Shown here one piece after another: positions 3,329 through 8,352 of a DNA stretch of 10,231 bases. Origin of the DNA: a virus. The notes below the pieces were generated by a model. It was given only the letters and a program-made list of their open reading frames with translations. It did no database searches and was not told where the DNA came from. Position 1 is the first letter of the stretch; each line of letters opens with the position of its first letter. The position numbers were made by a program, and so were the translations under genes. The stretch lies in UHGV virus genome UHGV-0306718; one strand, 5' to 3'.

Positions 3329-3718
3329 CTAACATTTTCTTTTTACTTTTCCAACAAAAGCTTTGGTTGAATCCATATTTCCATAACCGGAAATGGTTTT
3401 TGACATTAAAACTGTTCCAGTAGGATGTATTACCCATGAGTCGATAACGCGTTGAGTTTCGCCATTCGCGCCGATTCCTATGATGGAGTTTTTAGACAAT
3501 GCTTTGTAAGCCATGCCGCCCGCATCTGTCCCAGAATATGTGATGCTGGCATCTTCACCGTTTGTCTTAATGATGAATGTTCCACTAAAACCATCTTCTT
3601 CCGGATGGAAATTATTTCGTTCTGAATAGCTTATTCCGCGCATATCTCCAACGACCCAGCACTCTGCTGTAGCCCCAAAAGATATGAATAAGAACATAGC
3701 AGTAAGAAATTGCTTCAC
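3329..3718 (-). CDS. Hypothetical secreted (periplasmic) protein, 129 aa, probable accessory (moron) gene
   Basis: GTG start at 3718 with a perfect SD (AAGGAGG, 5-nt spacer); N-terminus MKQFLTAMFLFISFGATA|E looks like a Sec signal peptide with an AxA cleavage site; mature part has Cys near both termini; local GC about 35% versus about 50-55% in neighbouring virion genes. The longer 201-aa ORF in the track is an upstream extension with no RBS. Confidence 0.6.
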   Translation of the reverse strand: MKQFLTAMFLFISFGATAECWVVGDMRGISYSERNNFHPEEDGFSGTFIIKTNGEDASITYSGTDAGGMAYKALSKNSIIGIGANGETQRVIDSWVIHPTGTVLMSKTISGYGNMDSTKAFVGKVKRKC

Positions 3719-3748
3719 GCCAACCTCCTTAGTTTTGCGCAGGATACC

Positions 3749-4114
3749 ATGAAAAAAGTTAACATTGGAAACGTACCAAAGATGCTCGTTCCGCTCTTTG
3801 AGAGCGGTACAATTGTGTTTTGTAGAGACTTTCCAGAATGGCAACGCCTGCATCAAAAACTTGGCGTTGACGTGCATGACTCGGACGCCAACGGAGCGTC
3901 TCATACAATGAGTAGCGAGAATGGTGTTTTGCATGTGATAGGCGTGTTCAATGGCAAACTATCTACTATTGCCCATGAGTGCGCTCACATGGCATTCGAT
4001 ATCTGCTCAAGGGTAGGTGTTGATGTTGAACCAGGAAGAGCCAACGAGACTTACTGCTACTTAATGAGCAGGCTTGTTGAGTTCTGCGAGCGACATATCA
4101 AAAAGCCGGAGTGA
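3749..4114 (+). CDS. Hypothetical protein with HEXXH (zinc-metallopeptidase-like) motif, 121 aa
   Basis: ATG at 3749 preceded by AGGA; contains HECAH followed by a downstream Glu (NETYCY); divergently transcribed from the secreted-protein gene with only 30 bp between the two start codons. Family not recognised. Confidence 0.55.
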   Translation: MKKVNIGNVPKMLVPLFESGTIVFCRDFPEWQRLHQKLGVDVHDSDANGASHTMSSENGVLHVIGVFNGKLSTIAHECAHMAFDICSRVGVDVEPGRANETYCYLMSRLVEFCERHIKKPE

Positions 4115-5881: not shown

Positions 5882-5900
5882 CAGATAACCAACGCAACGA

Positions 5901-5923
5901 CCCAGCTTCGGCTGGGTTTTTTT
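5901..5923 (+). terminator. Intrinsic terminator after ant
   Basis: CCCAGC-TTCG-GCTGGG hairpin followed by TTTTTTT. Confidence 0.8.
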
Positions 5924-5981: not shown

Positions 5982-7973
5982 ATGACAGATATCACCGCAA
6001 ATGTTGTGGTAAGCATGCCTTCGCAACTCTTCACTATGGCGCGTTCTTTTAAAGCCGTAGCTAATGGCAAAATTTATATCGGTAAAATTGACACTGACCC
6101 GGTAAATCCTGATAACCAGATTCAGGTCTATGTTGAGAACGAAGATGGTTCTCACGTTCCTGTTGCACAGCCAATCGTCATCAATGCCGCTGGGTATCCA
6201 GTATATAACGGACAGATTGCCAAATTCGTAACTGTGCAAGGCCATTCTATGGCTGTTTATGATGCATGTGGTGCGCAGCAGTTCTATTTTCCAAATGTGC
6301 TGAAGTATGACCCGGATCAGTTAAGGCAGGAGTTAGCAAGTTCAGGTGATGATCTTGGAGATGCATTAATAGCAGTAAAACAACCATTCACCTTGTCAAT
6401 AAGAAGGACGCAGCATCAAAAAAATGCCGAGCACATTAGTGTTAGTGATTTTGGTGCAAAAGGAGACGGCATAACAGATGATACTGTAGCAATTCAAAAT
6501 GCTATTAATGCAGTACCAGAAGGGGCTATACTTGGATTTTATGGTGGTGAATTTGTTTTTGATAAGGTTGAATTGCTTAAGCCAATAACATTGGTTGGTG
6601 ATGCAACGTTAATTCACAACGGATTTAGAATAAAATCTAGCAGAATACGATCACTTTTATCTGGTGTTCAGAAATGCAAGGATTACTCCGAGTCTTCAAG
6701 AGCATTTTATTGCTATGCAAATGAAGACCAAAGAGATTATGACGATATTCAGATTTTGTTTAATAGATTTGAAGGTTTCTTTTACTCTACGGCATTTGTT
6801 GCAAAAAACTATTATTTGGAGAATGACCCTAATTCAAGAACTGTCAAAAATACAAAAGTAATAGGATGTACATCAGTTGCTCCTGATTCTGTAAATGCCG
6901 GTCATTTTCAACATATAGGCGTTACAAATGCTGAAACATCACATAACTCAACTTATGGCGGACAAAATGCAACATCATACAACTTCATTAACCAGAATGG
7001 ATTTGTAAGGATTATAGGAAATTATGACCATAACAATAGCTATGGTTCATGTGAGCTTGAGAACTCAATGGTGAGTAACTCAGTCATATCATGTAATACG
7101 TTTTCGTCATATTTATGGGTGGATGATACAAGCAATGTTACTATTTCTGGAAATACAGTTTCATCAAGGATCAAAGTAACATCGCAAACTGACGATGTTC
7201 ATAATATAACCATATCAGCAAATACCACAAAACGGATTACTATAGAGCAATTTGGAGAATCTCCGACAGGTCTGGTATATGGTGCATTAATTTCCTGTAA
7301 CACTATTACTGGCGACAGTGATGGAAGTTCAGACATTTTATGTACGTCACTTGTTACAGGTGAAATTTCATCAAATTATTGTCATGGATCAGAAAAAAAT
7401 ATATCAATTGTCCGCCTGGATTCTTCTGATATAACTGTTAGAAACAATAAAGGAAACAAAGGATTACTTACAATAAGTAACGATGGTGGGAGGATAATTG
7501 AATATGGCAATGATTCTATGGTTCTGTCTGGAAGCATAGATAGCAGACATATACATAATTTATTACAACCAGACACATCGTATTTAGATCTACCGGGGAA
7601 ATATCTGCACGGAACTAAATATACTGGCAGTATCCCCCCCGGTTCCACAGGAACTGTATCACTTCAAATACCATCAGGGGCAAGCCTTGTTTTCAGGGGT
7701 GTTTCTATATGGGTTCTAATTAGAGATGTTAGCAATAACAATATATCGTCATTCAGAATTGATGGTTCATATAGAGTTGTTGGTGGAAGTGTTGGTCTTA
7801 GTTTTGCTGATGCTTATTCGAAACTCGGGGTGGATGCAAACTCTATAACAGTGTCAAACAATAACAGCACTTCTGACAATATCAGCATAGCAATTAAAAA
7901 CACAGATTCATCAAAAACCCTTCAGGTTACTGTTATGCCGGAGGTTTCAAGCAGGTTAGGTATTGAGGAATAG
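5982..7973 (+). CDS. 9: Tailspike protein: P22-type head-binding N-domain fused to a divergent pectate-lyase-like beta-helix receptor-binding domain
   Basis: N-terminus [11 protein letters not shown]...[13 protein letters not shown]...[11 protein letters not shown]...NVLKYDPDQ matches the P22 gp9 head-binding domain; downstream sequence is unrelated to P22 gp9 and carries the [22 protein letters not shown] motif typical of pectin-lyase-fold depolymerases; SD GGAG upstream of the ATG. Confidence 0.9.
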
Positions 7974-8001
7974 CATCATATATAATTATTTTAATGTTAA
8001 T

Positions 8002-8029
8002 GCCGCCTTCTTGTTGGCGGCTTATTTGT
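8002..8029 (+). terminator. Candidate intrinsic terminator after the tailspike gene
   Basis: GCCGCC / GGCGGC stem with an 8-nt loop, followed by TTATTTGTG. Confidence 0.5.
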
Positions 8030-8049
8030 GAAAATCGAATGAGTTATTT

Positions 8050-8352
8050 ATGATGAATATAGAAGTTGATATAACACCAATTCTTCACGCACTTTGCGCT
8101 GTTGTCGCACAAGTTCTGGTTGGTCTTTTTACCGGAAACTGGGCTTACGGTGCGATAGCCGGTTGTACGTTCTTCATTGCGCGTGAACACACCCAGGCAG
8201 AATATCGCTGGATTGAAATGTTCGGGCATGGCAAGCGTATGAATATGCCGTGGTGGGGTGGTTTTGATCCACGCGTGTGGGATGTAGGAAGCCTTATGGA
8301 TTTTTCTTTCCCAATTATCGGATGCTTATTGGTATGGATTCTTGCATCGTAG
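8050..8352 (+). CDS. Hypothetical small inner-membrane protein (100 aa, about 3 predicted TM segments)
   Basis: ORF with three hydrophobic stretches (ITPILHALCAVVAQVLVGLF, AYGAIAGCTFFIA, FPIIGCLLVWILAS); occupies the position between tailspike and att/int where P22-like phages carry O-antigen-modifying conversion genes; weak SD. Confidence 0.45.
   Translation: MMNIEVDITPILHALCAVVAQVLVGLFTGNWAYGAIAGCTFFIAREHTQAEYRWIEMFGHGKRMNMPWWGGFDPRVWDVGSLMDFSFPIIGCLLVWILAS

Follow-up and report, generated by a model that had tools for sequence, protein, structure and literature searches.

A mosaic tailspike gene in a P22-like temperate phage of Escherichia coli and the receptor module it shares with Uetakevirus prophages

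How was the tailspike gene of the virus genome UHGV-0306718 put together, how far does its exchanged segment reach, and what does its receptor-binding part recognize? These questions are raised by a 10,231-nucleotide (nt) stretch of DNA from this UHGV genome (hereafter, the window), in which an open reading frame (ORF) at 5982..7973 encodes a tailspike of 663 amino acids (aa). The gene and its domains, junctions, and downstream features described below lie on the + strand. The encoded protein exactly matches the database protein P0006, which is named 'phage tailspike protein' in RefSeq and UniRef and occurs on 202 contigs; the intact 663-aa gene has more than 100 database entries. A preliminary description, made from the sequence alone, covered 6320-7973, which is the 3′ five-sixths of the ORF (codon 113 ends at 6320). 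It proposed a P22-type head-binding domain followed by a receptor module that was swapped in at the linker from a donor of lower guanine plus cytosine (GC) content. With good confidence, we read the gene as the tailspike of a P22-like temperate podophage that consists of an adaptor, a neck, a β-helix, and a β-sandwich, and into which a mobile cassette has recombined.

The head-binding (virion attachment) domain comprises residues 1-113 (5982..6320; 44.2% GC) and ends with the NVLKYDPDQ linker (residues 105-113, nt 6294-6320). In Pfam, PF09008 covers residues 1-113 with its full profile (E = 4.4e-66). The identity over residues 2-113 is 91.1% with Sf6 gp14 and 75.9% with P22 gp9, so the term 'Sf6-type' fits this domain better than 'P22-type'. 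The head-binding role of such domains is established, as is the endoglycosidase function of the P22, Sf6, and HK620 tailspikes. In the present spike, residues 1-113 would serve as the conserved adaptor for attachment to the virion tail hub. The spike is probably a trimer, as in P22 and Sf6.

Past the linker, the relationship with P22 is lost. The full-length chains of the P22 gp9 endorhamnosidase (2xc1_A and 8tvr_A) aligned with the protein in a single stretch of residues 1-116, and no alignment to the P22 receptor domain was found along the C-terminal 550 residues past residue 116. Apart from the head-binding domain, what the two spikes share is the linker and the genomic position after the immI/ant region. 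The situation differs for Sf6 gp14 (PDB 7sg7, 2vbk), with which residues 1-218 are homologous (E = 4e-82). Residues 117-218, which include the neck and the first rungs, align with the truncated Sf6 spike (E = 1.2e-13). The adaptor, neck, β-helix, and C-terminal domain plan is also the same in both. However, no sequence similarity to Sf6 gp14 is detectable past about residue 220, and the remaining match is that of a generic β-helix (template modelling score of about 0.4 and 15% identity). The preliminary description was thus right about a P22 gp9-type head-binding domain that reaches to NVLKYDPDQ, and its statement that everything beyond the linker is unrelated to P22 holds for P22 gp9 but not for Sf6-type spikes.

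To locate the junctions, we read the breaks from a five-way DNA alignment of the window, Gally, 611R6, the contig L011, and phiv142-3. The Lederbergvirus Gally follows the window as far as 6336, after which the two are unrelated, and 611R6 is homologous through the neck, more loosely, as far as 6469. L011 matches the window from 6336 on (98.9% identity) and phiv142-3 from 6434 on. Two nested 5′ junctions result. The first, at 6336 (residue 119), lies five codons past the linker, where similarity to Gally ends and identity with L011 begins. The second, at 6434 (residue 151), is the point where the Uetakevirus version joins, just before a conserved stretch. The segment 6434..8213 is common to the Uetakevirus prophages and phages (phiv142-3, EC.W1-9, CE0007a, and the second prophage of strain Ecol_881) at about 98.8% nt identity.

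The identity does not end with the tailspike gene. It continues 3′ through the stop codon and a terminator-like GC hairpin with a T-rich tail (8002..8021) into the next ORF at 8050..8352. Against the Uetakevirus copies, 19-21 mismatches were counted over 6434-8213 (approximately 1.1-1.2%) and 8-13 in the next 81 nt, and this jump places the 3′ crossover at about 8122-8213, inside the ORF 8050..8352. The exchanged segment therefore takes along the terminator and approximately 70-160 nt of the next gene. At the level of sequence, the mosaic nature of the gene is confirmed. The swap at the canonical linker that had been proposed survives in part: one junction lies five codons after the linker, whereas the second lies at 6434 and the segment extends past the stop codon.

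The gene at 8050..8352 encodes a 100-aa membrane protein of phrog_1443 with two hydrophobic (transmembrane) segments, and it had no match in Pfam, NCBIfam, or PADLOC. A phrog_1443 gene stands directly 3′ of the receptor-binding gene in the Lederbergviruses Gally, 611R6, HZ41, and JEP4, which carry other receptor domains than the window; the same position is found in Uetakeviruses, L011, and lambdoid phages, phage 21 among them. The protein retains 82-88% aa identity across the Lederbergvirus, Uetakevirus, and lambdoid phages and L011. Because this gene follows receptor-binding genes across phage types, it offers a conserved 3′ flank able to support homologous recombination. The phrog_1443 gene is itself a patchwork of allele blocks. 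We also considered the co-transferred gene as an indicator of the direction of transfer and rejected it, as phrog_1443 is present in both the Lederbergvirus and the Uetakevirus backbones.

The junction pattern suggests that the cassette joined the P22-like backbone by homologous recombination in conserved flanks. The 5′ crossover would have occurred either just past the linker (6336) or in the conserved stretch (6434), and the 3′ crossover within the conserved membrane-protein gene (about 8122-8213).

The same receptor module is found at 98-99% nt identity behind three unrelated N-terminal anchors, namely the P22-type, the Uetakevirus, and the PF18668 anchor. The DNA from 6434 on is about 98% identical to the gene of the 'tail fiber' Orf6 of the Uetakevirus phiv142-3, as well as to DNA of EC.W1-9 and of many E. 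coli prophages, and RefSeq names the Uetakevirus-anchored E. coli prophage copies 'glycosyl hydrolase family 28-related protein' (709 aa, P0113). In protein terms, residues 151-663 are 98-99% identical to this version, and the DNA likeness extends through the terminator between the genes into the first part of the downstream one. In contrast, its N-terminal anchor of about 196 aa, of the epsilon15/phiV10 type, and its phage backbone are wholly different. The third carrier is the protein P0101 on contig L011, which has the Tail_spike_N anchor PF18668. The cassette circulates among P22-like phages, the Uetakeviruses (which are epsilon15-like), and phages of a third type, those with the PF18668 anchor. 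More distant homologues (46-62% identity) have T7-fibre, tail-collar, or PF18668 anchors and occur in virulent coliphages (fBC-Eco01, St11Ph5, and Vectrevirus), Aeromonas phages, and Arthrobacter phages.

Among 5426 complete E. coli genomes, 37 contained the module, behind the P22-type anchor in 10 and behind the Uetakevirus anchor in 27. The P22-type prophages adjoin dacD, lie in the gal/modF or evgS region, or adjoin tRNA-Arg/yfdC (the intS site); in IR53017 and UID2309220041 the P22-type prophage occupies differing chromosomal sites. The SCZE5 prophage at tRNA-Arg/yfdC is a deleted remnant, in which a regulator pseudogene abuts a truncated transglycosylase. Strain Ecol_881 holds two prophages with the module, one P22-like by dacD (L004) and one Uetakevirus-like by yfgI (L014, NZ_CP019029.1 4715068-4717197), and a second module copy is also present in the P22-type carriers IR53017 and CUVET19-970. 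The co-residence in Ecol_881 means that cells uniting both backbones exist.

The neck (residues 114-150, 6321..6433), which is homologous to the Sf6 neck, is followed by a predicted right-handed parallel β-helix (residues 151-516, 6432..7529) that includes the cap matched by the pectate-lyase-like Pfam family PF12708 (residues 152-209, 6435-6608). This match is significant (E = 6.5e-11; 42.9 bits against a gathering cut-off of 27) and agrees with the pectin-lyase-fold signature DFGAKGDG...DDT.AIQ.A that had been noted before. It spans only positions 2-63 of the 213 profile positions, that is, the N-terminal cap. We predicted the structure of residues 114-663 as a monomer with AlphaFold, using an alignment of the query and 40 homologues that are 21-59% identical. 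The model had a predicted local distance difference test score (pLDDT) of 90.9 and a predicted template modelling score of 0.83. It shows a parallel β-helix at about residues 151-516 and a β-sandwich at about 534-659; by the AlphaFold secondary structure, the C-terminal β-sandwich domain is assigned to residues 534-659 (7581..7958). The neck (residues 114-148) forms short helices at low confidence in the monomer, with pLDDT below 50 for model residues 1-35. Tailspikes, depolymerases, epimerases, and lyases are the structural neighbours of the model. The β-helix and β-sandwich together would make up the receptor-binding module.

A candidate active site lies on the β-helix. Glu360 (7059-7061) is invariant in the 41 homologues and Asp381/Asp382 (7122-7127) are conserved at 93-95%, so that the candidate acids fall within 7059..7127. 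His308, Tyr333, Asp349, Asn361, and Trp379 are further conserved residues on adjacent rungs. Judging from this conservation, the cluster as a whole is likely the active site. The data do not separate hydrolytic from eliminative chemistry. The GH28 motifs are ordered NTD, DD, GHG, and RIK, whereas His308 of the module precedes the Asp pair 381-382, the reverse of the GH28 order. In Pfam, the GH28 family PF00295 was not reported even at E ≤ 1, and the only NCBIfam hit was a 19-bit match of the cap to a rhamnogalacturonidase model with a cut-off of 500. Nothing else useful for the tailspike or the downstream ORF came from NCBIfam and PADLOC. The endosialidase type of K1 tailspike (CUS-3, K1F) was not recovered either: PF12218, a short N-terminal extension, was found only below threshold (19 bits against 26.3), with no C-terminal Peptidase_S74 chaperone domain. 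The A-module of the mannuronan C5-epimerase AlgE4 (PDB 2pyg) shares sequence homology limited to the N-terminal cap, and AlgE4 differs in being a non-phage protein without the trimeric spike context. A look-up of clusters of distant homologues gave only metagenomic proteins without names and an Aeromonas 'tail fiber'. The module is very probably polysaccharide-cleaving, and it is a reasonable expectation from the family that it sets the host glycan specificity.

Several points weigh against the reading of the gene as a tailspike carrying a mobile receptor cassette. The data do not allow the direction and the number of transfers to be deduced. In 3 of the 10 complete genomes with the P22-type anchor, IS1A splits the tailspike gene (NZ_CP051222.1 1578132-1580900, locus L016; ECJXMCRH7; XH993), indicating that some copies are decaying prophage remnants. 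The two module copies of Ecol_881 are 98.07% identical, and their 36 differences over 1861 nt imply that the exchange was not recent within this strain. For the catalytic part, protein searches and searches with the 41-sequence profile reached solved structures in the N-terminal cap only and none beyond, and no characterized homologue was found.

What glycan, then, might the module recognize? We read the O types of the hosts from the wzx/wzy names given by PGAP. Ecol_881 and WP5-S18-ESBL-08 are O1, RS571 is O102, and LD67-1, which has a P22-type prophage, is O83. The phage phiv142-3 originates from an O2 strain (PMC7724020). The host O types are thus heterogeneous (among them O1, O83, O102, and O2). 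The wzy gene of O1 occurs in 92 of the 5426 genomes, and at least 14 of the 37 module genomes, counted among 60 of the 92 O1-wzy genomes that were listed, carry it, against a chance expectation of 0.6. The wzy gene of O83 occurs in 35 genomes, 3 of which hold the module.

The module may be an O-antigen-specific endoglycosidase for O1, possibly for a rhamnan-type glycan of O1/O2, with the carriers of other O types having switched their O cluster after lysogeny; we give this a little less than an even chance. The excess of O1 wzy among the module genomes argues for it, as does the fact that all three P22-type lysogens with the extra Uetakevirus copy are O1, and the O2 origin of phiv142-3 is in keeping with it. 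The Uetakevirus prophage occupies one yfgI locus in related O1, O83, and O102 chromosomes, which fits vertical inheritance followed by O-antigen switching. Moreover, the spikes of Lederbergvirus and of Uetakevirus are as a rule specific for the O antigen (Pas et al., 2023; PMC10408124). However, shared clonal ancestry confounds the excess of O1, as many carriers resemble one lineage, and the P22-type lysogen LD67-1 is O83. In addition, Pas et al. list the receptor-binding protein subtype at 95% identity or more in O5, O1, O102, and O51 strains and were unable to assign a serogroup (PMC10408124).

Alternatively, and more tentatively, the target may be a glycan other than the O antigen that several serogroups have in common, for example a capsule or some other exopolysaccharide, on which the module may act in a lyase- or epimerase-like way if the polymer contains uronic acid. 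The hosts cover several serogroups, and for that reason a common receptor, for instance a K antigen, was suggested (Pas et al., 2023; PMC10408124). Conserved His and Tyr residues adjoin the acidic residues of the candidate site, and the epimerase- and lyase-like structural neighbours lend weak support; yet β-helix neighbours do not separate hydrolases, lyases, and epimerases, and hydrolytic tailspikes just as typically have an invariant Glu together with an Asp-Asp pair. The family phrog_8280, annotated as colanic-acid degrading, matches residues 1-445. Our literature search on colanic-acid-degrading P22-like spikes and on the capsules of sequence type 648 gave nothing decisive. The virulent phage St11Ph5 has a fibre with a related module; mutants resistant to it keep their lipopolysaccharide unchanged and rough strains can be infected (PMC6393563). 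This behaviour, independent of the O antigen, lends weak support too, but the phage possesses two receptor proteins, and the identity of its module is only 47%.

A wider proposal joins the enzyme and its neighbour, and we regard it as unlikely. The cassette would be the founding member of a depolymerase family with an epimerase- or lyase-like site, directed at a glycan common to E. coli O-serogroups. The phrog_1443 gene would then serve as a recombination landing pad, or as a functional partner, for hops between podophage, lambdoid, and other temperate backbones.

The base composition bears on where the module came from. In full calculation, 6321-7973 has 36.3% GC and 24.9% GC at third codon positions (GC3), against 45.8% GC for the rest of the window and 43.5% GC3 for the other ORFs (chi-square test, p = 1.1e-12 for GC and 4.9e-15 for GC3). 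Of all 1653-nt segments in the sequence, the one starting at 6421 has the lowest GC content. The earlier spot counts of about 33-37% GC past the linker, below the rest of the phage, thus agree with the full calculation, and the difference from the remainder is significant. A recent import of this AT-rich module from a phage or host with a lower-GC genome, as the preliminary description had it, would account for the gap between module and flanks, and distant homologues do occur in Aeromonas phages, Arthrobacter phages, and virulent coliphages. Even so, the near-identical carriers found were all E. coli temperate phages or prophages of about 44-48% GC. In phiv142-3, CE0007a, and Ecol_881 the module has 36% GC and 25% GC3 within backbones of 44-48% GC, and the receptor domains of the Lederbergviruses Gally and 611R6 also have low GC3 (28% and 35%, against 42% for their anchors). 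No low-GC genome with a close copy of the module turned up in the homologue searches, and Aeromonas and Arthrobacter are GC-rich hosts. Because the module is AT-rich in every carrier and other Lederbergvirus receptor domains have low GC3, low GC seems to be a property of circulating receptor cassettes. We consider the lower-GC donor improbable and set that part of the preliminary description aside; the contrast in composition is real and looks like the mark of a long-circulating cassette with no identifiable foreign donor.

That the gene mainly serves the lysogen as a prophage 'moron' for serum survival or iron uptake is very improbable: deletion of phiv142-3 orf6 in an avian pathogenic E. coli lysogen did reduce growth in serum and in low-iron medium and lower iutA transcription (PMC7724020), but this phenotype comes without a mechanism and concerns another anchor version, and the protein is built as a structural tailspike with an adaptor for the virion, in a gene bracketed by terminator hairpins as in the late region of P22-like phages. 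The deletion phenotype is odd for a structural gene.

The surroundings of the gene fit a tailspike of a P22-like phage. Upstream (5′) are genes for a gp20-like ejection protein (PF16928) and a gp16-like DNA transfer protein, small immI-region ORFs, and the gene for the Ant antirepressor (PF10547/PF10548). The 3′ side has the membrane-protein ORF and then a P4-type integrase gene. The tailspike gene is thus placed as in Lederbergvirus, 3′ of the ejection-protein genes and the ant/arc/mnt region and 5′ of att/int, and the layout matches those of Gally, 611R6, and CUS-3. Its gene content and order identify the window as the late-right end of a temperate E. coli phage that is P22-like (Lederbergvirus). 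The second of the two hairpins that bracket the tailspike gene is upstream of it, at 5899-5918. In the immI-side region, two ORFs on opposite strands overlap (3329-3934 on the − strand and 3710-4114 on the + strand). They match phrog_2651 and phrog_1365, both without an assigned function, and neither had a match in Pfam or among defence systems. For the − strand ORF, the annotated start appears too far upstream, because the phrog match spans residues 85-200 only.

At the integrase end, perfect 23-nt inverted repeats (9993-10015 and 10209-10231) enclose a stretch of 193 nt. When read on the minus strand, this stretch codes for the proper C-terminus of the P4-type integrase (...MLGHELGGIMSVYNKHDW...stop), while the 5′ part of the integrase is the + strand ORF 8996..10069. 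The int ORF as it stands lacks the catalytic Tyr. The arrangement at 9993-10231 is either a fold-back assembly artefact at the sequence end or a real inversion. Repeated GTGTACCAAA / GCGTACCAAA motifs lie 5′ of the integrase gene at 8690-8720 and 8940-8990 and probably represent arm-type sites for the integrase. The likeness to the prophages integrated in Ecol_881 and LD67-1 stops at 8798, which suggests that the window has the attP arrangement of an excised or circular phage, in which tailspike and int are neighbours. No tRNA gene as an attachment site was found in the window.

A mosaic of this kind is textbook. Genus-specific anchors with exchanged receptor domains are known from P22, Sf6, HK620, and CUS-3, and the protein was already correctly named in RefSeq. 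Pas et al. (2023; PMC10408124) likewise described genus-specific conserved anchors with horizontally exchanged receptor domains and listed the phiv142-3 receptor-binding protein subtype in several serogroups. Beyond that work, our analysis adds the P22-type and PF18668-type carriers and hence the three-anchor distribution, a base-level junction map with the residue-151 junction, a cassette whose 3′ crossover lies in the downstream gene, and two carrier prophages in one strain.

Tailspike receptor modules decide which strains are infected and serve as parts for the retargeting of phages and tailocins. Among the carriers are O1, O83, and O102 strains, and several of these seem to belong to one multidrug-resistant lineage, so identifying the receptor would be of practical value. 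The locus is a clean natural example, with one cassette behind three anchors, crossovers mapped to the base, and P22-type and Uetakevirus-type prophages in one chromosome. It illustrates a well-established principle and leaves that principle unchanged.

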